64,000 bases of DNA from Alphaproteobacteria bacterium (GTDB taxonomy: Bacteria > Pseudomonadota > Alphaproteobacteria > JAPULJ01). Both the position numbers and the translations under genes were made by a program. Where the stretch lies: the NCBI GenBank assembly GCA_037387885.1, contig JARRKQ010000003.1, forward strand, positions 11,675-75,674, given 5' to 3'. Under the pieces are notes generated by a model, which saw nothing but the letters and a program-made list of their open reading frames with translations, was not told the DNA's origin and did no database searches. Within the stretch, counting starts at the first letter, position 1, and each line of letters opens with the position of its first letter. This document shows, one piece after another, positions 39,262-52,869 of this stretch.

Positions 39262-40701
39262 ATGGGCCACGCCAAGACGAGCGCGGCGCGGAAAGGGTTC
39301 GCCGCCCTGCCCTCCGTCGACCGTGTGCTGGGCTGGCCGGCGGTGGCAGCGCTCGCCGCGACCTACGGGAATGCGGCGACGCTCGAGGCGGTGCGCGCGG
39401 CGCTCGACGAAGGACGGGCGGCGATCGCGGGCGGCACCGGCTTTGCCGGCGACGGGGCGCTGACACAAGCCGTCGCGGCTCGCCTGGAAGCGCGGTTCGC
39501 GCCGCCCTTGAGGCGCGTCTTCAACCTGACCGGCACGGTGATCCACACCAATCTCGGCCGCGCGCCCTTGGCCGATGAGGCGATTGCCGAGATCGCGGCA
39601 GCTGCGGCGCAGCCGGTGAACCTCGAATTCGATCTCGGCAGCGGTCGGCGCGGCGACCGGGACGACCTGATCGAGAACCAGATCTGCCGGCTGACCGGCG
39701 CCGAGGCCGCGACCGTGGTCAACAACAATGCGGCGGCCGTCCTGCTCGTGCTCAACACGCTGGCGCGGCGGAAGGAGGTGCTGGTCTCGCGCGGCGAGCT
39801 TGTCGAGATCGGCGGGGCGTTCCGCATTCCCGACGTGATGGCGCGGGCCGGCGCCAAACTGCACGAGGTCGGCACGACCAACCGTACGCACCGGAAGGAT
39901 TTCGAAGCCGCGATCAGCCCGCGCACGGCCTGTTTGATGAAGGTGCATACGAGTAACTACGAGGTGCGGGGCTTCACCAAAGCCGTGCCGGAGGCGGAGC
40001 TGGCCGCGCTGGCCCACGCGCACGACCTGCCCTTCGTGGTCGATCTCGGCAGCGGCATGCTCGTCAACCTCGAGGATTTCGGCCTGCCGCACGAGCGCAC
40101 GGCGCGCGAAACGCTGACCGAAGGCGCCGATCTCGTCACCTTCAGCGGCGACAAGCTGCTGGGCGGCCCGCAGGCGGGCATCATCGCCGGCCGCGCCGAT
40201 CTGGTCGCCAAGATCAAGCGCAATCCGATGAAACGGGCGCTCAGGCTCGACAAGCTCGTGATCGCGGCGCTCTCGGCGACCTTGCGGCTCTACGAGGATC
40301 CCGACGGTTTGCGCGAACGCCTGCCGGTGCTGCGGCTGCTGACGACGCCGGCTGACGAGATCGCGGCACGGGCCGAGCGGCTACAGCCAGTATTTGCGAA
40401 AGCATTGGACGGCGTCGCGAGTGTCGAAGCCGTGGCCTGCAAGAGCCAGATCGGCAGCGGCGCCCTGCCCGTCGATCTCCTGGAAAGCACCGCGCTGGCG
40501 ATCCGGCCGGCGGGCGCGCGGAAAGGTAAAGGCGGCGGAAAGGCGAATGCCTTGGCGGCGGCGTTCCGGGCGTTGCCGGTTCCGGTGATTGGGCGGGTGC
40601 GCGAGGGCGCGCTGCTCTTCGATCTGCGCTGCCTGGAAGACGAGGCCGGGTTCGTGGCGCAATTGGGCGCGCTCGACCTGTCGGGGCTCGCGCCGAAATG
40701 A
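39262..40701 (+). CDS. selA: L-seryl-tRNA(Sec) selenium transferase
   Basis: LPSVDRVL..., [40 protein letters not shown], and PLP lysine context [13 protein letters not shown]. Confidence 0.9.
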
Positions 40702-42659
40702 TCATCGCCACCGCCGGCCATGTCGACCACGGCAAGACCTCGCTCTTGAAGGCACTGACGGGGGTCGATGCCGACCGCCTGCCCGAGGAGAAGAAGCGCG
40801 GACTCACCATCGATCTGGGCTTCGTTTACGACGACACGATCGCGCCCGGCACGGTGATCGGCTTCGTCGATGTGCCGGGGCACGAGCGCTTCATCCACAA
40901 CATGCTGGCGGGCGTGACCGCGATCCGCGGTGCGATGCTGGTCGTCGCCGCCGATGACGGGCCGATGCCGCAGACGCACGAGCATTTGGATATTCTCGAT
41001 CTGGTCGGCATCGAGACCGGGTTCGTCGCGCTCACCAAGATCGACAAGGTGGATGCGGAGCGCGTCACCGAGGTGACCGCGGAGATCGAGGCGATGCTGG
41101 CGGGCACGCGTCTCGCCGGTGCACCGATCTTTCCGGTGTCGTCGGTTGACGGTAGCGGTGTCGCGGACATTGCCGCGCATCTGCGAGGCTTGGCGGAAAG
41201 CGAAAAACGGGCGCCACCGGCGGGCAATTTCCGGCTCGCGGTCGACCGCTCCTTTACCGTCGCGGGCGCGGGCCTGGTGGTGACCGGGCCGGTCAGCGCC
41301 GGGCAGGTGCGGACGGGTGACACGGTCGTCCTCTCGCCCGACGGCCGCGAGCTCCGCGTGCGCGGGTTGCGGGCGCAGGACCGGGCGGTCAAGGAAGCGG
41401 TACTCGGCGACCGCTGCGCCATCAACTTGGCCGGGCGCATCAGCAAAGAGGAGATCGCGCGCGGCGACTGGATCGTCGCAATACGTGCCCACGCGCCGGT
41501 GCGTCGGATCGATGTGGCGCTCCGTGTCCTTGGTTCGGAGGACCGCGCGCTCAAGCACTGGACGCCCGTGCATGTCCATCACGGCACGGCGGACGTGATG
41601 GGCCGGGTGGCGCTGTTGGAGGAGAAGGCCATCGAGCCGGGCGGGCAAGGCCTTGCGCAGTTGGTATTGGACGCGGCGCTCTGCGCCCGCGCGGGCGACG
41701 CCGTGATCATCCGCGATCAATCGGCGCGGCAGACCATGGGCGGCGGTCGGGTCGTCGACCCGTTCTCGCCACGGCGCGGCCGGGCGCGGCCCGAACGCCT
41801 CACCTGGCTGCACGCCCTGTGCAATCCGGATCGAGATGCGGCGCTGCAGGCTATTCTCGATGCGTCGCCCGGCGGCGCGCCGCTGCAGACGCTAGAAGCC
41901 GCCTGGAATTTGACGGCCGCAGAGGCCGAAGCGCTGCACGCCAAGGCGGATGTCTGTTGTACAGGTCAGGACGAAGTCGTTGGTCTGACGAAGGCACATC
42001 GCGACGCCCTCGCTTCGGCCATTCTCACGGCGCTTGAGCGGCTGCACCGTGCGAACCCCAATGCGGGCGGTGTGAACGAGGCGCATCTGGCGCGCGCCCT
42101 TCCGTTCCGCGCCCGGCCGGCGGCCTTCGCGCATGTCGTGGGCGAGCTCGTCGCCCAAGGTGAGATCGTGCGCGCCGGCGCCGTGCTGCAGCGACGAGGC
42201 TTCGCGGCCAGACTATCGGCGGCCGACGACCGGGACTGGCGACGTGTCGAAGCGGTGATGAACGCTGCGGCGGACCGGCCGCCGACCATCTTCGAGATCG
42301 CCGAGGACCTCGGCCTGCCGCAGAACCAGGTCGCGGGGCTGTTGGCGCGGACGGCCAAGCTGGGCCTGACCGCGCGGGTGTCGTCGAACCGCTACATGAC
42401 GCGGGCAGGATTGCGGACATTGGCGGGCATCGCCGAAACCGGCGCGCGCGGATTGCCCGGTGGGCGTTTCAGCGTCGCCGCCTTCCGCGACTGGTCGGGG
42501 ATCGGCCGCAATCTCAGCATCAAAATCCTGGAGTTCTTCGACAAGGTGAAGTTCACGCGGCGCCTCGGCAACGAGCGCGAGATCCTGCGCCCGGCTGCCG
42601 ACGTGTTCGGCGCGGGCGAGGCTGCCCCTGCCCCTCAAGAGCCCGTCAAGGCGGGCTGA
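40698..42659 (+). CDS. selB: Selenocysteine-specific translation elongation factor
   Basis: [52 protein letters not shown], and a long C-terminal winged-helix region. ATGA overlap with selA. Confidence 0.9.
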
Positions 42660-42702
42660 ATGCCTTGGACCTCGACGGGGCGGCCATGCTAGCCAGAGAG
42701 AC

Positions 42703-42798
42703 GGAGGAGGATCGGTTCCCGGTGGGCCGCGCGGGCTTCAAACCCGTTGGGACGCGCCAGGCGTGTCTGGTGGGTTCGACTCCCACCCTCTTCCGCCA
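42703..42798 (+). tRNA. selC: tRNA-Sec (anticodon UCA)
   Basis: GGAGGAGG-AT-CGGTTC..GGGCCG-C-GCGGG-CTTCAAA-CCCGT-long variable arm-TGGGTTCGACTCCCA-CCTCTTCC-G-CCA. Features: 8-bp acceptor stem, 6-bp D stem, UCA anticodon in the loop CUUCAAA, long extra arm, encoded CCA. Confidence 0.9.
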
Positions 42799-42816
42799 CT
42801 TCCCGCGACCCTAGCC

Positions 42817-45030
42817 ATGCAGAACGACACGCCGGTCAAATGCGACATCGTGCTGATCGGCGGCGGCCATGCGCATGCCGCAGTGCTGAAGAGCTTCGGC
42901 ATGAAGCCCGAGCCGGGGGTGCGGCTCAATCTGATCTCGCCGGGCTCGCTTACGCCCTATTCGGGGATGCTGCCGGGCTATCTCGCCGGGCATTACACGC
43001 TGGAAGAAACGCATTTGGACCTGCGCGCCCTGGCACGGTTCGCCGGCGCACGCTTCTACCAGACGGCGGCGACCAGCCTCGATCTCGCCGCCGGCACCGT
43101 CCTCTGCGGTGACCGGCCGCCGGTCGCCTTCGATCTGCTCAGCATCGATATCGGCTCGACGCCCAGCGAGCACGGGATCGCGGGCGCCGAACGTTCGATC
43201 CCGGTGAAGCCGGTCGACCGCTTTCTCGCCCGCTGGGACGAGGTCGAGCGGCAAATCGTGGCCGATGGCGGGCGGCACCGGCTGGTCGTCATCGGCGCGG
43301 GTGCCGGTGGAACCGAAACCGCGTTGGCGCTCGATTTCCGGGCGCGTCAGGCGCTGAAGCAGGCCGGCAAGCCCGCGAACGGGTTCGAGGTTGCGATCGT
43401 CGCGCAATCGGCAGAGCCGCTCGAAACACACGGCGCCGGAACACGGCGGCGCATGCGGAAAGCGATCGAGCACGCCGGGATTGCGTTCCACGGCGGCCAT
43501 TCGGTGAAGGCCATCGAGGATGGCCGGATCGTCTGCGAGCCCGCGATCGATTTGCCGTTCGATAGTGTCGTGCTGGTGACGCCGGGGTCGGCGGCGCCCT
43601 GGCTTGCCAGTACAGGCCTCGCGCTCGACGAGCGCGGCTTCATCCGCGTGCACGACACGCTGCAGTCGGTGACCGATACACGCGTCTTCGGCGCCGGCGA
43701 CACTATCGCCTTCGAGCCGCGCGCGCTTCCGAAGAGCGGCGTCTATGCCGTGCGCGAGGGGCCGTTCCTGGCGACGAGCCTGCGCGCGCTTGCAACCGGC
43801 GGAACCCCGCGCGCCTACCATCCTCAGCGTCGGACCTTGGCGCTGATCTCGATGGGGAAGAAGCGCGCGGTGCTGTCCTACGGGGCCGCGTCGGTCGAGG
43901 GCGACCGGGCCTGGCGCTTCAAGGACTGGATCGACCGGCGCTGGATGCGGAAGTACCAGGAGCTGCCGGAAATGGACGGCGGCCAGGACGACGGTGACGA
44001 CGAGCCGATGCGCTGCGGCGGCTGCGGCGCCAAGGTGCCGGCGGATGTATTGAAAAGCGCGCTGGCGACGATCGCACCGAACCAAAGTCCGAAGACACGA
44101 AGTGTCCTCGTAGGGCTCGAGGCGCCGGACGATGCGGCTGTGATCGTTCCGCCGCCAGGCAAGGCGCTGGTGCAGACCTTCGATCAGTTCCGCGCCTTCA
44201 TCGACGACCCCTACCTCTTCGGCCGCATCGCTGCCAATCATTGCCTGGGCGACATCCATGCGATGGGGGCCGAGCCGGCCTCGGCGCTCGCCGCGGTCAC
44301 CCTGCCCTATGCCGAGCCGGAGAAGATGGGCCAGGACCTCAAGCAGCTTCTGGCGGGTGCTCTGGCGACGTTCAAGCTGGAAGGCGTAGCGCTGATCGGC
44401 GGGCATACCGGCGAGGGCGCCGAGTTGATGATGGGCTTCACCATCAACGGCTTCGTCGATGAGGCGGCGATGCTGCGCAAGGGCGGCCTCAAGCCGGGCG
44501 ATGCGATCATTCTGACGAAGCCGCTCGGCACCGGCGCGCTGCTCGCCGCCGACATGCGCTACAAATCGGATGGGCGCTGGATCGACGCAGCGATCGAGAC
44601 GATGCTGCAATCGAACGGGCCGGCCGCCGAGATCGCCCGCAAACACGGGGCAACCGCCGCGACCGACCTCACCGGCTTCGGCCTCGCTGGGCACCTGATC
44701 GAGATGGCCGAGCCGGCGGGGGTGACCGTGACGATCCGACTGGACGATGTACCTGTGCTCAAAGGTGCGCTGGATGTGATGGCGGATGGGATCGTGAGCT
44801 CGTTGCAGCCCGACAATGAGCGCAACGCCGGGCTCGGCGCTACGGCGAACAACACCAGGCGCCCGATTCTGTTCGACCCACAAACGGCGGGCGGGTTGCT
44901 GATCGGCGTTGCCGCGGAAACGGCTGAGGCCTGCCTCGCCGATCTGCGCGAAGCAGGCTTCACCCAGGCCGCGGTAATCGGCGAGGTCAATGCCGAGAAA
45001 AGCGCCGGGCCTCTTGTCGTCGCCGCCTAG
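42817..45030 (+). CDS. selD: Fusion protein: N-terminal FAD/NAD(P)-binding pyridine-nucleotide-disulfide-oxidoreductase-like domain + C-terminal selenide, water dikinase (SelD, Cys type)
   Basis: Starts at ATG 42817 (the track ORF start 42763 overlaps the tRNA). N-terminal DIVLIGGGHAHAAVL and LVVIGAGAGGTE Rossmann motifs. From about aa 398: MRCGGCGAKV (SelD glycine-rich loop with Cys, not Sec), then DDAAV, FGRIAANHCLGDIHAMGA, and the PurM-like C-terminal half. Confidence 0.85.
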   Translation: MQNDTPVKCDIVLIGGGHAHAAVLKSFGMKPEPGVRLNLISPGSLTPYSGMLPGYLAGHYTLEETHLDLRALARFAGARFYQTAATSLDLAAGTVLCGDRPPVAFDLLSIDIGSTPSEHGIAGAERSIPVKPVDRFLARWDEVERQIVADGGRHRLVVIGAGAGGTETALALDFRARQALKQAGKPANGFEVAIVAQSAEPLETHGAGTRRRMRKAIEHAGIAFHGGHSVKAIEDGRIVCEPAIDLPFDSVVLVTPGSAAPWLASTGLALDERGFIRVHDTLQSVTDTRVFGAGDTIAFEPRALPKSGVYAVREGPFLATSLRALATGGTPRAYHPQRRTLALISMGKKRAVLSYGAASVEGDRAWRFKDWIDRRWMRKYQELPEMDGGQDDGDDEPMRCGGCGAKVPADVLKSALATIAPNQSPKTRSVLVGLEAPDDAAVIVPPPGKALVQTFDQFRAFIDDPYLFGRIAANHCLGDIHAMGAEPASALAAVTLPYAEPEKMGQDLKQLLAGALATFKLEGVALIGGHTGEGAELMMGFTINGFVDEAAMLRKGGLKPGDAIILTKPLGTGALLAADMRYKSDGRWIDAAIETMLQSNGPAAEIARKHGATAATDLTGFGLAGHLIEMAEPAGVTVTIRLDDVPVLKGALDVMADGIVSSLQPDNERNAGLGATANNTRRPILFDPQTAGGLLIGVAAETAEACLADLREAGFTQAAVIGEVNAEKSAGPLVVAA

Positions 45031-45077: not shown

Positions 45078-45716
45078 ATGCGCGACGTAGACGAATTGGT
45101 GGACGGCTACCGCCGCTTTCTGGCCGGCCGGTACGAGAAAGAGGCCGCGCTCTATAGCGAGCTCGCCGAACAGGGCCAGGCGCCGAAGGTGATGGTGATC
45201 GCCTGCTGCGACAGCCGCGCCGATCCCGCGGCGATCTTCGACGCGCGGCCGGGCCAGCTCTTCGTGGTGCGCAATGTCGCCAATCTGGTGCCGCCCTTCG
45301 AGCCCCACGGCGACTATCACGGCACCAGCGCGGCACTCGAGTTTGCGGTGAACGGGCTCGGCGTGGAGACGATCCTGGTGATGGGCCACGGCCGTTGCGG
45401 CGGCGTGCGCGCCTATCTCGACGGGCTCTATGAAGCCGAGCCACCACGCGGCTTCATCCAGCGCTGGATGTCACTTTTGAAGACGGCGCAGACCGAAGCG
45501 TTGCGCGCGGCGGGCGACCAGCCGATCGAGGCGCAGGCGAAGGCGCTCGAATTCGCCTCGGTGCGCCATTCGATCGACAACCTCCAGACCTTTCCCTTCG
45601 TGAAGGACCGGGTGGCCGACGGCCGGCTGCGCCTGCGCGGCGGCTATTTCGACATCGCCGATGGGCGCCTGCTGGCGCTCGATCCTGAAAGCGGGGCTTT
45701 CAGCTCTGTCGACTGA
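45078..45716 (+). CDS. Beta-class carbonic anhydrase
   Basis: VMVIACCDSRADP...VVRNVANLV...MGHGRCGG, the zinc ligands C-x-D-x-R and H-x-x-C. Confidence 0.85.
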   Translation: MRDVDELVDGYRRFLAGRYEKEAALYSELAEQGQAPKVMVIACCDSRADPAAIFDARPGQLFVVRNVANLVPPFEPHGDYHGTSAALEFAVNGLGVETILVMGHGRCGGVRAYLDGLYEAEPPRGFIQRWMSLLKTAQTEALRAAGDQPIEAQAKALEFASVRHSIDNLQTFPFVKDRVADGRLRLRGGYFDIADGRLLALDPESGAFSSVD

Positions 45717-45736
45717 TCTGGGTCGACTGATCCGGG

Positions 45737-46849
45737 TCAGGCCTTGGCCGGTTCCGGCGTCTCTCCGAACGCATTGATGCCGAGCTGGTCGCGCATGCCC
45801 TCGGTCATTTCCGCCTTGTCGTCCTCCAGCGGGATGCCGGTGGAATCGGCGACGCGGTCGATGGCGTTGAAGAGCGCAGCGACCCCCGCCGCATCCGCCA
45901 AGGCCTCGCCGCCCATGGCCTCGATCACAGCCGCGCGGGCGGCATCAAGCCTGGCCGGATCGGCGCCGACCGCCGCTTCGGCGAATTCGAGCAGGACGCC
46001 CGCGTTCGGGATGCCGCTTTCGTCACCGCTCTTTCCCAGCAGTGCGCTTAGATCGTAGTCGTCTCCGGAATGTTCGCCGCTCGCACGGAGCAGCACCGCA
46101 TGGCTGGTGGTTCAGTAGAGACACTGGTTGAGGGCGGAGACCCGGCCGGCGATCATCTCGATCTGGGCGTGGCTGATGGCGCGGTACTCGGTGCCGAAGT
46201 CGCGCATCTGATCGCCGCGCAGATAGAGCGTGTTCGCCATCTCCCAGAAGCTGCGCGCCGTCGCCGGCACCAGCGTGAGCGCGCGGCGGATATGCGCGGC
46301 GCTGCCCGGATAGAATTCGCGCTGGAGCGGGCCGTCGTGATCGGGATCGAGCGTCGGCACCCAGGCCAGCTCGATATTGAGGTGCTCGGGCGTCTCCGGG
46401 CTCGGCGCGCCGTCCTGCGCGTCCGGAATCTCCGGTGCGTCCTGGCCAATGCCGCGGCAAAAGGTGTCGATGCCGACGACGCTGACGACGACGCCGATCA
46501 GCTCGACATATTCCCTGGGCGAGATACCGCTGCTGGTGACCTCGCGGAACCAGCGTTCGGAAAGCCGGCCCGGATCGCTCATGACCCGGTGAATGATGTC
46601 GACCCAGACCTCCGGGAGCGCGCCCAGATGGTTGTGCTCACCGTCGACAGCAAAGGGCGAGATCGCGGCCTTGCGTTCTGCGCACAGGGCGCAGCCGGCG
46701 ACGTTTCGTGCTTCGGCCGCGATGGCGGTGCGCTGCTCGGCGGTCAGCCAAGTTCCCGGCTCGCCGATCCGCGCCCAGACGTTCGGCAGCGCCGCCGCAA
46801 CCTCGTCGCGAATCGGAACCGGCGCAGCCTCAAAAGATAAGGTGCTCAT
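45737..46849 (-). CDS. Candidate selenoprotein: two-domain CMD/AhpD-like protein (about 370 aa) with in-frame UGA at 46114..46112
   Basis: Track ORFs 46112..46849 and 45737..46096 are in the same frame, separated only by TGA + 5 sense codons. Joined reading: ...HAQIEMIAGRVSALNQCLY-U-TTSHAVLLRASGEHSG..., which gives the AhpD/CMD motif C-x-x-C-x-x-x-H with TGA at the second Cys. The N-terminal domain has its own CALC motif. Confidence 0.7.
46082..46102 (-). promoter_or_regulatory. Candidate bacterial SECIS hairpin for the AhpD-like gene
   Basis: RNA CAUGCGG-UGCUGCU-CCGUGCG. Pairs are C-G, A.C mismatch, U.G, G.U, C-G, G-C, G-C, with a 7-nt loop that starts 17 nt after the UGA and has G at loop position 2. 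The stem is weak and no folding was computed. Confidence 0.35.
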
Positions 46850-46887
46850 ATGAGACGCGGCCTCCTGTCAGCTCAGTGACGAATTCC

Positions 46888-46899
46888 ATACGATCGTAT
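46888..46899. promoter_or_regulatory. Perfect 12-bp palindrome ATACGATCGTAT in the divergent spacer between the two candidate selenoprotein genes
   Basis: Read directly in spacer 46850..46997. Confidence 0.35.
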
Positions 46900-46997
46900 C
46901 GTGCCTATTCGCCCCGAACAACGGTGTCGGCGTTGCAATCCGCGCGCGACGCAGGCACAGTTGGCGTTCCTGCGAGCCATTTCACTGGAGCCGCCTT

Positions 46998-47468
46998 TTG
47001 TCAGAGAAACTTGGGATCGGCGCGACGTTTCCGAAGCTAACGCTCAAGCTGGTCGGTGGCGGAACGCTCGATCTTCCCGAAGGGCTCGACGCCAAATACC
47101 GCGTCATCCTCTTCTACCGGGGCCATTGGTGACCCTACTGCCGCCGTCAGTTGGACGGCTTCGAAGAAAATAGGGAAGCGCTCGAAGCGAAGGGCGTCAA
47201 GATCGTCGCCGCCAGCGTCGATGACGAGGAGAAGGCCGGCGAGATCGCGGCCGGCAAGGGCTTTGCCTTCGGCTACGGCGTGACCCGCGAAGATGCGGAC
47301 AAGCTGGGCTCGTGGTGGGAAGAGCGGCGCGGCATCATCCAGCCGTCGGAGTTCCTGCTCAATCCCGAGGGCAAGGTGATGGCCTCGAGCTACAGTGACG
47401 GGCCGATCGGACGCATCGACGCCGCCGACGTGCTGAAGGTGATCAACTTCTACGAGTCGAAGAAGTAG
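46998..47468 (+). CDS. Candidate selenoprotein: peroxiredoxin-like / redoxin (AhpC-TSA fold) protein with U-x-x-C motif, in-frame UGA at 47130..47132
   Basis: My translation from TTG 46998 (GGAG 8 nt upstream): MSEKLGIGATFPKLTLKLVGGGTLDLPEGLDAKYRVILFYRGHW-U-PYCRRQLDGFEENREALEAKGVKIVAASVDDEE...LLNPEGKVMASSY.... The track lists only the 3' part (47151..47468). FYRGHWCPYC is the usual family motif, and here the first Cys codon is TGA. Confidence 0.75.
47143..47159 (+). promoter_or_regulatory. Candidate bacterial SECIS hairpin for the Prx-like gene
   Basis: GCCGUC-AGUUG-GACGGC: a perfect 6-bp stem and a 5-nt loop with G at position 2. The loop starts 17 nt after the UGA. Confidence 0.5.
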
Positions 47469-47550
47469 CCGTACCTCTGCGTCCGAGCCGGCTCCGAGGA
47501 AGAGCGTCCCAAGGCGCCCCGCCGGCAGTCGATGCGCGAGCGGTAATGCT

Positions 47551-48246
47551 ATGGCCAGCACCCCCGAACCGCCGTCACCCTTACGACTGGGGCTCGTTTC
47601 GGGGGCGACCATTGCCTGTTTCGGCGCCGTGCTTTTCCTGCCGGCGGGACGGCTCGACTGGTTCGCTGGCTGGCTCTATCTCGCGATCGTCGTTGTCTAC
47701 TTCGCCGCCAATTACGTCTATCTCAACCGCGTGAACCCCGAGCTGATCGCCCATCGCATGCGCATGGGCAAGGGCACCAAGCGCTGGGACAAGGTCTGGC
47801 TCTGGCTGAACACGCCCGTTTTCCTCGGCATCCATGTCGTCGCCGGGCTAGATGCCGAACGCTTCGGGTGGTCGCAGATGCCGGGATGGCTTTGGCCGGT
47901 GGGGCTTGCGGTGTTCGTTGCGGGGAGCGTGCTGGTCAGCTGGTCGATGGGCGTGAACCCGTTCTTCGAGAAGACCGTACGCATCCAGAGCGAGCGCGGC
48001 CATCGGGTCATCGACACCGGCCCGTACCGCTTCGTCCGCCATCCAGGCTATCTCGGGTTCTTCGGCTGGCTCGTTTCCACGCCGTTGCTGCTCGGCTCGT
48101 GGTGGGCCTTCGTGCCCGCGGCGCTCTCGCTTTTCTCTTTCATTGGGCGCACGGCGCTCGAGGACCGGACGCTGCGGCGCGAGCTGACGGGCTATGAAGA
48201 CTATGCGCGCCGCGTCCGCTACCGGATCCTGCCAGGGGTTTGGTGA
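47551..48246 (+). CDS. Membrane methyltransferase of the isoprenylcysteine carboxyl methyltransferase / PEMT-like family
   Basis: About 5 TM. C-terminal motif ...HRVIDTGPYRFVRHPGYLGFFGWLV...ALEDRTLRRELTGYEDYARRVRYRILPGVW is typical of ICMT/DUF1295-type enzymes. Confidence 0.7.
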   Translation: MASTPEPPSPLRLGLVSGATIACFGAVLFLPAGRLDWFAGWLYLAIVVVYFAANYVYLNRVNPELIAHRMRMGKGTKRWDKVWLWLNTPVFLGIHVVAGLDAERFGWSQMPGWLWPVGLAVFVAGSVLVSWSMGVNPFFEKTVRIQSERGHRVIDTGPYRFVRHPGYLGFFGWLVSTPLLLGSWWAFVPAALSLFSFIGRTALEDRTLRRELTGYEDYARRVRYRILPGVW

Positions 48247-48262
48247 CGCAGGCGGTCGCGCC

Positions 48263-49246
48263 CTAGTCGAAGGCCGTCTGGTGGCGGCTCAGGATCTGCT
48301 CGCCGAACAGGCTGGCGACGAGCTCGACGACGAGCTCCGCCGTGGTGTTGCGCAGATCGAGCGCGGGGTTGAGCTCGGTGATCTCCATCGAGCCGAGCAG
48401 ACCGGTCTCGTAGAGCATCTCCATGCAGAGCTGCGATTCGCGGTAGGTCGGCCCGCCCTTGACCGTCGTGCCGACGCCGGGCGCGATCGTGGGATCGAGG
48501 AAGTCGACGTCGAAGCTCAGATGCAGATGGCCACCACGCTCGGTCACCCGCGCGACGATATCCTCCATGACGCGGCGCATTCGCCGCTCGTCGATCTCGC
48601 GCATGTCGTAGACGGTGAGGCCGGCCTCCAGCACCGCTGCTTTCTCGACATGGTCGACGGAACGGACGCCGAGCAGGCTGATCTCGTCGGCGCCGAGGAT
48701 CGGCTGGCGGCTGCCGAGCGCGGTGAGCTCCGCCGGGCCGTCGCCGCAAAGGACCGCGACCGGCATGCCGTGAATATTGCCCGAAGGCGAGGTCTTGGGC
48801 GTATTGAAATCGGCATGCGCATCGAGCCAGACGACGCTGAGCGGCGTATCGCTTGCGGCGCAATGCTCGGCGACGGCGGCGATGGATCCGATCGCGATCG
48901 AGTGGTCGCCGCCCATCACCAGGGGCAAACGGCCCGCTTGCAGCGATGTGGCGACCACCGCTTTCAGATTGGCGCACCATTCGGCGGCTTCGGCAAGATG
49001 GCGGTAGCCGTCGCGGACCGGCGCATCGGGATTGGGCGGGCCGGAGACATTGCCGCCGTCGATGACGCTCAGGCCCATCTTGCGCAGCATCAGGTCGAGG
49101 CCGGCGACGCGCAGCGCCTCCGGACCCATCGAGCTGCCCCGGTCGGCTGCGCCGATATCGGTCGGCGCGCCGATCAGCTCGATGGTGGGCTTGGCGGACT
49201 TGCCGGACCGGGCGGGCTTGGACGATTTGGCGGACTTGGCGCTCAT
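48263..49246 (-). CDS. rocF: Arginase with a K/S-rich repeat N-terminal extension
   Basis: Ureohydrolase motifs GGDHS, DAHADFN, SFDVDFLDP. The N-terminus is MSAKSAKSSKPARSGKSAKP before the conserved IELIGAPTDIGA. Confidence 0.9.
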   Translation of the reverse strand: MSAKSAKSSKPARSGKSAKPTIELIGAPTDIGAADRGSSMGPEALRVAGLDLMLRKMGLSVIDGGNVSGPPNPDAPVRDGYRHLAEAAEWCANLKAVVATSLQAGRLPLVMGGDHSIAIGSIAAVAEHCAASDTPLSVVWLDAHADFNTPKTSPSGNIHGMPVAVLCGDGPAELTALGSRQPILGADEISLLGVRSVDHVEKAAVLEAGLTVYDMREIDERRMRRVMEDIVARVTERGGHLHLSFDVDFLDPTIAPGVGTTVKGGPTYRESQLCMEMLYETGLLGSMEITELNPALDLRNTTAELVVELVASLFGEQILSRHQTAFD

Positions 49247-49354
49247 GGCAACACGATACCCGCGCGACGCCTAATGGACGCCTAACGGACAGCCCGGCCC
49301 CGCCGCGGCTGACTGCCTAAGAAATGCCTGGGGAAATGCCTGCCTGGGATTGGG

Positions 49355-50254
49355 TCAGCCCGCCTTGGCGGCCTTCGCCTTGTCGAGAATGCCGACGGCG
49401 ACCATGGTTTCCTCGACCCGGCGCTTGGTCTCCTCGGCGATCTCGCAGATCGGCAGGCGCGCCTCGGCGCTGCAGAGGCCGAGCAGGCTTGCGGCATACT
49501 TCACCGGGCCGGGGCTGGTCTCGCAGAACAGCGCCTCGTGGAGCGGCAGCAGGAGATCGTTGATTTCCGTGGCCCGGTCGAGATCGCGCGCGGCCCAGGC
49601 ATCGTGCATTTCCGCGCACAGCGCCGGCGCGACGTTCGACGTCACCGAGATACACCCCACCCCGCCTTGCGACAGGAACGGGATGGCGGTCGCGTCCTCG
49701 CCCGAAAGCTGGATGAAGTCGGGGCCGGTGACGACGCGTTGCTGCAACGGACGCACGAGATCGGCGGTGGCATCCTTCACGCCGACCACATTGGGCAGCG
49801 CCGCCAGGCGGTCCATGGTCTCGACTGTGATGTTCACGATCGAGCGGCCGGGGATGTTGTAGATCAGCATCGGCAACTCGGCCGCGTCGTTGATCGCCTT
49901 GAAGTGCTGGTAGAGGCCTTCCTGGGTCGGCTTGTTGTAATAGGGCGCGACCGAGAGATGGTAGTCCGCCCCCGCCTTCTTGGCGTGCTGGGCGAAGCCG
50001 ATCGCCTCGTCGGTGCAGTTGGAGCCGGTGCCGGCGATGACCGGAACGCGGCCGGCGGCCGTCTCGACACAGACCTCGACCACCCGGCGGTGCTCGGTAT
50101 GCGAGAGCGTCGGCGATTCGCCGGTGGTGCCCACGGGCACGAGCCCGTCGGTGCCGCTTTCGATCTGCCATTCGATCAAGCGGCGGAACGCGCTTTCGTC
50201 GATCTTGCCGTCGCGGAACGGCGTGATCAGGGCGGTGATCGAGCCCTTCAGCAT
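49355..50254 (-). CDS. dapA: 4-hydroxy-tetrahydrodipicolinate synthase
   Basis: MLKGSITALITPF....IDE.AF..LIEWQI..G..GLVPVGTTGES.TLS..EH..V......A.GRVPVIAGTGSN...EAI...., with active-site context GVKDA. Confidence 0.95.
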   Translation of the reverse strand: MLKGSITALITPFRDGKIDESAFRRLIEWQIESGTDGLVPVGTTGESPTLSHTEHRRVVEVCVETAAGRVPVIAGTGSNCTDEAIGFAQHAKKAGADYHLSVAPYYNKPTQEGLYQHFKAINDAAELPMLIYNIPGRSIVNITVETMDRLAALPNVVGVKDATADLVRPLQQRVVTGPDFIQLSGEDATAIPFLSQGGVGCISVTSNVAPALCAEMHDAWAARDLDRATEINDLLLPLHEALFCETSPGPVKYAASLLGLCSAEARLPICEIAEETKRRVEETMVAVGILDKAKAAKAG

Positions 50255-50420
50255 GGCCTCGTCCTCTTTGTAAGTCGTTGTTCGGTCCGGATTCGCTTGG
50301 GCCGGAGCATAACCCCGGCCTGTTTTTGCGGCAAGGGTGCACCCGTATTAACCAATTCCGCCCTTTGCCGGCTGACATCGCGGCGAAAATTTGGCATAAA
50401 TTTAGACAAATTGTGGCAAA

Positions 50421-50456
50421 GATTCGAACGATTCGAACGATTCGAACGATCCGACC
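50421..50456. repeat. 9-bp tandem repeat GATTCGAAC x3 plus a degenerate fourth unit (GATCCGACC) in the dapA/slt divergent spacer
   Basis: Read directly. Each perfect unit contains a GANTC site (GATTC) and a TTCGAA palindrome. Confidence 0.85.
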
Positions 50457-50490
50457 GACGCTCGGACGCGGAGAACTGGGAGGTTCTGGG

Positions 50491-52869
50491 GTGTTTCGAG
50501 GTCTGATAGTGGGTTTGCTCGCGCTGGCGTTGGGCGCGTCGACCAGTTTGGCCGATAGCGGAAAGCCGCGGGTCAAGGCCGCGCCTACGATGAAACCGGC
50601 GGTTAGGCCCGCTGCAGCGGCGAAGAAAAAGCCCGCCGCCCGCACGGTCGCCCGGCGGAAACACCTTATACGCCGGAAATCTGCCGCCAGCGCACGGGCG
50701 CGGGCCCGGGCCGCCGCGAGCGCGCGGGCGAAAGCGAAAGCCGCAGCCGAGCGCGAGCGTCTGGAAGCAGCCGAACGGCGGCGGGTGCGCCTCGAACGGC
50801 TCCAGCCGGCACGGGGCTCGATCGTCCAGCTTGCCATCCGCGACCCGCTGCCGCCGCTCCGCGCCAATGCGAGCGCCGCCGAGCGCGCCTTCCGCGCCAT
50901 GGAAAAGGCAAGCTGGGGTCAGGCGATTGCCGCCTACCGCCGGGTCCGCGATCCCCTGACGCGCAAGATGCTGACCTGGTATCGCCTGCAAAGCCGCACC
51001 AGCGGCGCCTCGTTCGGCGAGATCCACACCTTCCTGCAGCGGAACCCGGATTGGCCGCTCGGCGCGCGCCTGCGCTACCGCGCCGAAATGGCGATGGGCT
51101 GGAGCCATGCGCGCGACGCCGATGTGCTGGCCTTTTTCAAAGACAAGGCGCCGCGCACCTTGAACGGCGCGATGCGGCTCGCCGAGGCGCTGCGCAACAG
51201 CGGCAGGCCGACCGAGGCGACAACGTTGTTGAAGCGGACCTGGGCGCGCGGGCGCACCTTCGGGCCGCAGGAGCGCGCCTTCCTGAAGCGTTTCGGCGAC
51301 GACCTCACCGTCGAGGATCATGCCGCGCGCGTCCACACCATGATCTACCGGAACCGTCGCCGCACCGCGCGCGTCTATATCCGCGCCCATCGCGACAAAT
51401 TCACCGACGGCATGAAGGCGCTGTTCCGCGCGCGTCTGTTGCTGAGCGGCCGGCGCGCGCCGAGCGAGCGCCGGGTGGAGAAGGCGCTGGCGGCGATCCC
51501 CGAGGCCGAGCGCAAGCACCCAGCGCTCGCCCACGATCTCATCCGCTGGCATCGGCGCAAGGACCGGCTGGAGGAGGCCGTCGCGCTCCTGAACGCCACC
51601 GATGCAAGCGGCGAGCCGGAGCGGCCGTGGTGGCAGCAACGCGCCTGGGTGGCGCGGGTGGCGCTCCGCTTCGGCAAGCCGGAGATCGCCTATGCGGTCG
51701 CGCGCGATCATCACGCCAAGGAACGCCGGCACATCTACGAGGGCGAGTGGCTCGCCGGCTGGATCGCGCTCCGCTATCTGCGCAAACCGGCGCTCGCCAA
51801 ACCGCATTTCGAGAGGCTCTACAAGCTCGCGCGCTATCCGGTGAGCTGGGCGCGCGGCGCCTATTGGCTCGGCCGCACCGCCGAGGCGCGCGGCGACCGC
51901 AAGGCGGCGCTCGCCTGGTACCAAAAGGCGGCGCAGTACGTGCAGACCTATTACGGGCAGTTCGCGCTCGCCAAGCTCGGCCGCAAGCACGTGACCTTAC
52001 CGGCGCGGACGGCGATCACGCCTGCCCAGCGCGCCGCCTTCGAGCGCAAGGAGCTGGTCCGCGCGGCACGGCGGCTCGAAGCGCTCAATCAGCGCGACAT
52101 CGCCCGCTGGTTCGTCTTCGCTGCCTTCGACACGGCGAAGACCCCGGCCGAGCGCGCGCTCGCCTCGCAGCTCGGGATCGAGATCGAGCGGCTCGAGACG
52201 GCCGTGCGCACGGCTAAATATGCAGGGCGCTACAAGCAGTTGCTGGTCGAGAGCGGCTATCCGATCATCATGGTGCCGGCGGAGATCGGCGCGGAACCGG
52301 CCCTCATCCTCTCGCTCATCCGCCAGGAAAGCGAGTTCAACCACGAGGCCATCAGCTGGGCCGGCGCGCGCGGCCTCATGCAGCTCATGCCGCGGACGGC
52401 TTACAGGACGGCCCGCAACATCAAGGTGCGCTACAACCGCAAGGCGCTCATCCGCAACCCCCACTACAACATGAAGATCGGCACCTCGCACGTGGTTGAG
52501 CTGATGGAGGAGCTGGGCGGAAATTACGTATTGGTCGCCGGCGCCTACAATGCCGGGATCGGGGCGGTGAATTTTTGGCTCTCCGTGAACGGCGATCCGC
52601 GCGGCGGCAGCGCCGAGCGCTGGATCGACTGGATCGAGGCGATCCCGGTTCCCGAGACACGCAACTACGTTCAGCGCGTGCTGGAAGCGGTGCAGGTCTA
52701 CCGCGCCCGGTTGGGCGATAACACGCTGTCGGTCGCCAACATCGCCAAACGCTGGAACGGCACGGTCGAGCCCATCGACGTGACGCGCGCCGCGAGCGTG
52801 GGCAGCGCCGGCAACGGGAAAGGCTGCGTCACCCAGACTTCGGCGAAGCCGGGCAGCCCCGCCTGCTGA
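50491..52869 (+). CDS. slt: Soluble lytic murein transglycosylase (Slt70-like)
   Basis: Start proposed at GTG 50491 (GGGAGG upstream; VFRGLIVGLLALALGASTSLA signal peptide). Catalytic region LIRQESEFNHEAISWAGARGLMQLMP...AGAYNAG. The N-terminal region is A/R/K-rich low complexity. Confidence 0.85.
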   Translation: MFRGLIVGLLALALGASTSLADSGKPRVKAAPTMKPAVRPAAAAKKKPAARTVARRKHLIRRKSAASARARARAAASARAKAKAAAERERLEAAERRRVRLERLQPARGSIVQLAIRDPLPPLRANASAAERAFRAMEKASWGQAIAAYRRVRDPLTRKMLTWYRLQSRTSGASFGEIHTFLQRNPDWPLGARLRYRAEMAMGWSHARDADVLAFFKDKAPRTLNGAMRLAEALRNSGRPTEATTLLKRTWARGRTFGPQERAFLKRFGDDLTVEDHAARVHTMIYRNRRRTARVYIRAHRDKFTDGMKALFRARLLLSGRRAPSERRVEKALAAIPEAERKHPALAHDLIRWHRRKDRLEEAVALLNATDASGEPERPWWQQRAWVARVALRFGKPEIAYAVARDHHAKERRHIYEGEWLAGWIALRYLRKPALAKPHFERLYKLARYPVSWARGAYWLGRTAEARGDRKAALAWYQKAAQYVQTYYGQFALAKLGRKHVTLPARTAITPAQRAAFERKELVRAARRLEALNQRDIARWFVFAAFDTAKTPAERALASQLGIEIERLETAVRTAKYAGRYKQLLVESGYPIIMVPAEIGAEPALILSLIRQESEFNHEAISWAGARGLMQLMPRTAYRTARNIKVRYNRKALIRNPHYNMKIGTSHVVELMEELGGNYVLVAGAYNAGIGAVNFWLSVNGDPRGGSAERWIDWIEAIPVPETRNYVQRVLEAVQVYRARLGDNTLSVANIAKRWNGTVEPIDVTRAASVGSAGNGKGCVTQTSAKPGSPAC

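Follow-up and report, generated by a model that had tools for sequence, protein, structure and literature searches.

AhpD and its selenocysteine-containing relatives

The gene described here, at 45737..46849 on the minus strand of a 64,000-nucleotide stretch of DNA (the window; contig JARRKQ010000003.1, positions 11,675 to 75,674) from an Alphaproteobacteria bacterium, very probably encodes a single selenocysteine (Sec)-containing, AhpD-related protein of family NF041238, decoded through a selenocysteine insertion sequence (SECIS) element at 46094..46076. What is known about its closest counterparts? AhpD proteins carry a proton relay, formed by Glu118/Cys130/His132/Cys133/His137 in Mycobacterium tuberculosis AhpD and by Glu36/Cys48/Tyr50/Cys51/His55 in PA0269 (PMC3141380). 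The same relay, on a helix-turn-helix with a Glu 12 residues before the first Cys of Cys-x-(His/Tyr)-Cys-x-x-x-His, is found in the AhpD-like protein Mlr4105 (PDB 3c1l), in the AhpD 6k40, and in the protein encoded here. AhpD itself has weak peroxidase activity (PMC3141380), and the second Cys of the M. tuberculosis protein, Cys133, is exposed and cross-links to Cys61 of AhpC (PMC6626918). Like these AhpD proteins, the present protein has a probable partner in a peroxiredoxin encoded nearby. The differences are that here the second Cys is Sec, that the AhpD-like part is preceded by an additional N-terminal half of 188 residues, which has a CxxC of its own, and that the neighbouring peroxiredoxin is a short UxxC peroxiredoxin-like (Prx-like) selenoprotein and no typical 2-Cys AhpC.

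AhpD-like selenoproteins have been met repeatedly in marine sequence surveys. A conserved CXXU motif marks the "hypothetical protein 1" that was predicted in the 2005 Sargasso Sea survey (PMC1088965), and in ocean metagenomes AhpD-like CxxU selenoproteins belong to the most abundant families (PMC2398784). The AhpD-like 1 (COG2128/TIGR01926) and AhpD-like 2/carboxymuconolactone decarboxylase (CMD; PF02627) families of the Global Ocean Sampling (GOS) and Sargasso Sea sets likewise have CxxU at the AhpD redox motif and a SECIS within the coding sequence, but they are single-domain proteins of about 180-200 aa, whereas the present gene belongs to the separate, two-part family NF041238 (AhpD_rel_CFYUT). 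A 2026 review equates that family with "hypothetical protein 1" (PMC13188914). The original prediction, made from the letters of the window, was right that AhpD-like selenoproteins appear in metagenomic surveys (PMC1088965, PMC2398784), but it overrated the novelty of the gene, since the exact family is already curated as NF041238 and listed in the review (PMC13188914). Nor is the two-domain architecture, which it singled out for documentation, out of the ordinary: the long two-part form is the family norm, and the NF041238 model itself spans 357 positions. The gene is an ordinary member of a known, curated selenoprotein family, and nothing here will surprise a selenoprotein specialist. What can be added is the correct SECIS, the observation that the family is almost always Sec and routinely mis-split, and an adjacent Prx-like selenoprotein as a candidate partner.

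One gene, probably read through an in-frame UGA

The features of the gene used in what follows are these:

45737..46849, minus strand: predicted AhpD-related selenoprotein gene, complete; 370 aa with a single internal Sec-UGA
46112..46114, minus strand: predicted Sec codon UGA (U246), at the second Cys position of C-x-x-C-x-x-x-H
46076..46094, minus strand: SECIS hairpin; 7-bp stem 46094..46088/46082..46076, loop CGUGC
46100..46159, minus strand: active-site helix-turn-helix; E231 at 46159..46157, with C243, Y245, U246, and H250 within 46123..46100
46682..46693, minus strand: N-terminal C53-A-L-C56 motif, in the family-specific half (residues 1-188)

The reading frame starts with an ATG at 46849 and ends with a terminal TGA at 45739..45737. 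Its sole interruption is the TGA at 46114..46112, before which the upstream part ends in ...IEMIAGRVSALNQCLY; after it the codons ACC ACC AGC CAT GCG GTG continue in the same frame through to 45737. In the open reading frame (ORF) list the gene is accordingly divided into 46112..46849 (245 aa) and a second part, 45737..46096, which begins with a GTG and has 119 aa; the joined product carries the motif C243-L-Y-U246-T-T-S-H250. The original prediction had described two same-frame ORFs five sense codons apart and joined by one UGA, and base by base this description is correct.

Read as one protein with U replaced by C, the product matches NF041238, an equivalog model with a curated cutoff of 175, at 466.2 bits (E 7.6e-140), residues 13-362 aligning to model positions 1-356 of 357. 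It shares with the family the length class, the single Sec, and the C-x-Y-U-T signature, which is present here as C243-L-Y-U246-T and in all 80 related loci described below; the members come from uncultured, mostly marine Alphaproteobacteria. The family name has Phe at the variable position (CFYUT) where Leu stands here (CLYUT), and the relatives have V, T, L, F, I, A, or E, so that the difference is not an essential one.

How do the relatives treat the internal codon? A scan of one genome per species gave 80 loci, nearly all from uncultured Alphaproteobacteria, that match the query from residue 1 to about residue 361-370 with 43-91% identity. Of the related genes from these loci, 81/81 have TGA at the internal position, while their terminal stops are mixed (TAG in 30, TGA in 28, and TAA in 23). 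Another 118-140 open codons follow the TGA, over which amino acid identity is 44-90% and two motifs are conserved, TTSH..LLRAS and FNAIDRvADatGiP. A continuous homolog of 384 aa, P0013, is 50% identical over 98% of the query and has Cys in the U column (...NQCHYCTTRH...). The homology checks that the original prediction had proposed, for continuous Cys-bearing or TGA-conserving homologs and for AhpD-like similarity downstream of the UGA, thus came out in favor of its selenoprotein candidate.

Does an AhpD-like domain lie across the UGA? Matches to the general AhpD and CMD models are all confined to residues 189-343. PDB 3c1l aligns with residues 191-340 (E 2.3e-8 over 150 residues), its CYYCLTAH standing opposite CLY[U]TTSH so that U246 corresponds to the second Cys of CYYC. 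The next PDB matches across the UGA are the AhpD 6k40 and then the "peroxidase-related" proteins 2pfx, 2oyo, and 2prr. As residues 191-340 align with AhpD-like structures, the domain spans the UGA, and the TGA sits at the second catalytic Cys of an AhpD/CMD-like protein, as had been predicted. Matches to TPR proteins in the same PDB sequence search are sums of many individually nonsignificant stretches and were set aside as spurious.

Each of two 13-kb loci carries the AhpD-related gene twice (L070, at 5213 and 6357; L075, at 1562 and 6703). The TGA and the frozen hairpin sequence described in the next section are present in each copy.

The SECIS element

Bacterial SECIS (bSECIS) elements are described as having an apical loop of 3-9 nucleotides (nt), an upper stem of 4-16 bp, a G within the first two loop positions, 16-37 nt between UGA and loop, and a minimum free energy of -7.5 kcal/mol or lower (PMC13188914). 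In the hairpin at 46094..46076, a 7-bp stem carries a loop of 5 nt whose second position is G and whose third is U; the spacing is 24 nt and the free energy -11.7 kcal/mol, all within these limits. Its conserved core is 6 bp (46093..46088 with 46082..46077) around the apical loop 46087..46083.

The evidence for this element comes from an alignment of 83 sequences that covers 66 nt, counted from the UGA. Columns 23-36 (UGCUCCGUGCGAGC) hardly vary, and RNAalifold, unprompted, placed a stem at 22-27/33-38 with the loop CGUGC. Counting the extra closing pair of the window, 89.9% of cells pair, versus 29-55% when the 3' partners are slid, and pair 22-38 appears as CG in 69 sequences, GC in 3, UG in 2, and AU in 1. 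Within the hairpin, synonymous sites are frozen among distinct sequences (Leu CTC 79/79, Arg CGT 79/79, Ala GCG 78/78, Ser AGC 70/71), while the codons around it vary, each of Thr, Gly, and Leu being written with three to five synonyms. Selection at the protein level cannot explain frozen synonymous codons, which therefore indicate an RNA element.

A hairpin downstream of the UGA had been part of the original prediction, and a SECIS is indeed present there. The particular structure it named, a GCGG/CCGU hairpin at about 46099..46085 within its span 46102..46082, can be drawn but is not conserved and was rejected: 75% of cells pair, there are no two-sided changes, and the closing pair is broken in 38/79. 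A search of Rfam returned no matching cis-element, only the tRNA-Sec described below and a subthreshold chance match to a togavirus frameshift element.

The active site and the N-terminal half

Across 82 full-length sequences, E231, C243, Y245, U246, and H250 are invariant. Their spacing is identical to that of the relay in M. tuberculosis AhpD and PA0269, with Sec replacing the second Cys, and U246 occupies the position of Cys133, the residue that cross-links to AhpC.

The N-terminal half is specific to the family. It has no Pfam match even at an E value of 10 or below and no meaningful PDB profile match. Its own CxxC motif is well kept in the family, C53 being invariant and C56 conserved in at least 90% of sequences. 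The 245-aa product alone was modeled with confidence as an all-helical structure (predicted local distance difference test score 89.6, predicted template modeling score 0.90). In fold searches with this model and with full-length P0013, human Sestrin2 (5dj4, 5t0n) is the only protein at the top of both, at a nonsignificant level (E 0.08-0.9, template modeling score 0.33-0.44). Sestrin2 is a pseudosymmetric chain of two AhpD-like helical subdomains, one with the redox helix-turn-helix motif (PMC4674687). In Sestrin2 that motif has a single Cys and lies in the N-terminal subdomain, whereas here the canonical motif lies in the C-terminal half and has Sec. An hhalign comparison of the two halves (E 0.008, probability 4.7%) laid C53xxC56 on C243xxU246, and MAFFT independently gave the same register, CxxC on CxxU. 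The N-terminal half may thus be a diverged second AhpD-like domain, which is a lead rather than a result.

A second selenoprotein gene next door

Directly upstream, on the opposite strand, lies another selenoprotein gene, which was absent from the original prediction:

46998..47468, plus strand: Prx-like (AhpC/TSA) selenoprotein gene; 156 aa, TTG start, TAG stop
47130..47132, plus strand: its predicted Sec codon, in ...YRVILFYRGHW-U-PYCRRQL..., a U-x-x-C motif
47143..47159, plus strand: its SECIS; 6-bp stem GCCGUC/GACGGC, loop AGUUG at 47149..47153

A 148-bp spacer separates the gene from the AhpD-related one, from which it diverges, and a GGAG stands 8-11 nt upstream of its TTG start. The protein matches Pfam AhpC-TSA (PF00578) at 69.8 bits versus a cutoff of 26, and Redoxin at 45.8. 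Its TGA is conserved in 26/26 relatives with a complete region, in all of which the gene has the AhpD-related one beside it. The SECIS loop begins 16 nt after the UGA, and the hairpin has a free energy of -10.6 kcal/mol; all cells (100%) pair in 27 sequences, versus 4-54% when slid, and pair 18-26 is GU in 13, AU in 6, UA in 6, and GC in 2. Prx-like UxxC selenoproteins are already known as a class. A minus-strand ORF at 47037..47612 was considered as a conserved partner gene and rejected, its translation being antisense-like, a shadow of the Prx-like gene.

Is the pair of genes kept together? A Prx-like gene adjoins the AhpD-related gene in 27/80 relatives, either divergent from it or codirectional just downstream, and published accounts mention in a general way that genes for Prx-like selenoproteins cluster with those for AhpD-like ones (PMC2398784, PMC13188914). 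By analogy with AhpC and AhpD, the linkage suggests a relay with Sec in both partners. That the AhpD-related protein specifically partners the Prx-like protein is, on this analogy, an even call.

The selenium genes of the locus

The four genes selA, selB, selC, and selD lie on the plus strand within 7.5 kb:

39262..40701, plus strand: selA, L-seryl-tRNA(Sec) selenium transferase (TIGR00474, 576.7 bits versus a cutoff of 267.9)
40698..42659, plus strand: selB, SECIS-binding Sec elongation factor (TIGR00475, 417.3 bits versus a cutoff of 242)
42703..42798, plus strand: selC, tRNA-Sec with anticodon UCA (ARAGORN; Rfam RF01852, 72.3 bits versus a gathering score of 47)
42817..45030, plus strand: fusion of a pyridine-nucleotide-disulfide oxidoreductase to SelD (TIGR03169, 413.6 versus 310; TIGR00476, 290.5 versus 125); start codon probable

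The AhpD-related gene converges on this block, with its 3' end about 700 bp from selD, and the set that had been placed alongside it in the original prediction was located in full at 39262..45030. The fusion (Ndh-SelD) matches Pfam Pyr_redox_2, AIRS, and AIRS_C, and its SelD active site reads C-G-G-C-G-A-K, the Cys form; the GOS paper describes Ndh-SelD fusions that have a CxxC motif (PMC2398784). As the maximal ORF of the present fusion, which begins at 42763, runs into the tRNA-Sec, translation probably starts at the ATG at 42817.

Linkage of the AhpD-related gene to sel genes recurs among the 80 relatives without being general: about 20 have selA or selB, and 15 the SelD fusion, at a distance of up to 6 kb, and a tRNA-Sec was found in 19/60 loci (the first 60). 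The arrangement is similar to the link between selABC and fdhA that has been reported in cultured Proteobacteria (PMC1794560).

A proposed redox cycle

How might the protein be made and used? A ribosome reaching UGA-246 would meet, 18 nt further on and inside the coding sequence, the hairpin that would recruit SelB with Sec-tRNA(Sec). Sec would be inserted at 246, and translation of 124 further codons would complete the AhpD-like helical domain (residues about 189-345). U246 would then act as the attacking nucleophile and C243 would resolve the mixed intermediate, giving an intramolecular C243-U246 selenenylsulfide. The protein would thus be a selenol/thiol oxidoreductase cycling between this form and the reduced one. 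Its most likely job, by analogy with the peroxide-detoxifying AhpC/AhpD pair, would be to re-reduce, or to act together with, the neighboring Prx-like selenoprotein.

A more elaborate picture can be drawn, though as a whole it is doubtful. The Prx-like (W-U-P-Y-C) and AhpD-related (C-L-Y-U) proteins would form a dedicated peroxide-reducing relay with Sec in both, communicating through an interprotein diselenide or selenenylsulfide; in uncultured Alphaproteobacteria the pair would travel as part of a compact "selenium island" together with selA-selB-selC-Ndh/SelD; and the 370-aa protein would be a Sestrin-like pseudodimer of two AhpD folds, its N-terminal CxxC serving as an internal recycling center.

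Weighing the readings

Several points weigh against the reading of 46849..45737 as a gene for a Sec-dependent AhpD-like redox protein with a Prx-like partner. Selenium incorporation and enzymatic activity are predictions, here as in every other member of the family, whose functions are given as unknown in the review (PMC13188914). The whole 71-nt region folds no better than shuffled sequence (z = 0.56), and the case for the SECIS therefore rests on conservation, not stability. The general models score below their cutoffs: 21.4 versus 23 for Pfam CMD (PF02627), 51.5 versus 81.8 for TIGR01926 (E 1e-13), and 27.1 versus 27.8 for TIGR00778. The homology is significant all the same, and the protein is best regarded as a distant AhpD relative outside these narrower families. 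The structural model of the C-terminal half is of low confidence, the alignment depth being too small. In Burkholderia thailandensis AhpD the first Cys matters more than the second (PMC6626918), so the two positions do not play the same parts everywhere. Finally, a Prx-like gene is adjacent in only about a third of the relatives, and a partnership is therefore not obligatory at the level of gene order.

Could the protein be a genuine Sec protein and still have nothing to do with its neighbor? It might be a stand-alone hydroperoxidase, or it might handle selenium, delivering or reducing selenium species for Ndh-SelD; we consider this improbable. If selenium handling were its role, the recurring position beside sel genes would have a functional cause, and the counts given above (sel genes within 6 kb in about 20/80 relatives, the Ndh-SelD fusion in 15) can be cited in its support. 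So can the Prx-like gene's being missing from the immediate neighborhood in about two thirds of the relatives, the weak peroxidase activity of AhpD itself (PMC3141380), and an N-terminal CxxC domain to which no function is assigned. Linkage to sel operons, however, is commonly explained by cotransfer with a client, as for fdhA next to selABC (PMC1794560). Moreover, the pairing of a Prx-like with an AhpD-like protein mirrors the experimentally established AhpC/AhpD redox couple, and no feature specific to selenium trafficking was found.

What if UGA-246 were simply a stop? There would then be either two separate genes, of 245 and 119 aa, or a truncated pseudogene. Public databases do list the halves as separate hypothetical proteins, and in the window a GTG stands five codons past the TGA. 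Yet among the relatives the distance from the internal TGA to the next in-frame start varies between 5 and 48 codons, none of these starts being conserved, and the downstream part is therefore no independent gene. With the internal TGA universal where true stops vary, an AhpD-like domain and PDB alignments that span it, a continuous Cys homolog, constraint at the RNA level just downstream, and Sec machinery adjacent, an ordinary stop is very improbable.

No better placed is the reading in which UGA specifies a standard amino acid (Trp, Cys, or Gly), whether because the code is reassigned or because near-cognate suppression acts: the residue inserted here is a prediction from sequence, and in other systems Cys is known to enter at Sec codons when selenium is limiting, but TGA is the genuine stop of the AhpD-related gene itself and of 28/81 relatives, so the code is not reassigned, while a dedicated tRNA-Sec stands adjacent with selA, selB, and selD, the hairpin fits the model of a SelB-dependent SECIS, and the codon stands where a CxxC motif has its redox Cys, a classic site of Sec/Cys exchange.

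Consequences for annotation

A Sec-containing, NF041238-type protein thus remains the reading to be preferred for the gene, and it has practical consequences. Standard ORF calling splits both the AhpD-related gene and its Prx-like neighbor at the UGA. In a large protein collection, relatives of the former appear mostly as N-terminal hypothetical proteins of about 245 aa and C-terminal ones of about 100-125 aa; gene callers routinely split the family in this way, and Cys forms are rare. Hundreds of such halves stand in public protein collections as unrelated "hypothetical proteins," and the selenoproteomes of uncultured Alphaproteobacteria are therefore undercounted unless models like NF041238 are applied. 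The family is abundant and almost always has Sec rather than Cys, and the conserved adjacency of the Prx-like gene offers a concrete, testable hypothesis about its partner.

Other features of the window

A loose scan of the window for other TGA-interrupted ORFs with redox motifs gave 77 candidates, which by eye are off-frame, high-GC noise apart from the two genes described. A promoter and terminator scan of 45600..47600 found none, and two long ORFs, 48194..49285 (plus strand, 363 aa) and 49317..50900 (minus strand, 527 aa), have no Pfam or NCBIfam match. Two further neighbors are recognizable:

45078..45716, plus strand: beta-class carbonic anhydrase (Pro_CA, 151 bits), between selD and the AhpD-related gene
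47551..48246, plus strand: ICMT/PEMT-family membrane methyltransferase, after the Prx-like gene

These two genes are kept at their positions in only the two closest relatives (L001 and L002) and, given such limited positional conservation, are probably unrelated to the selenium genes.

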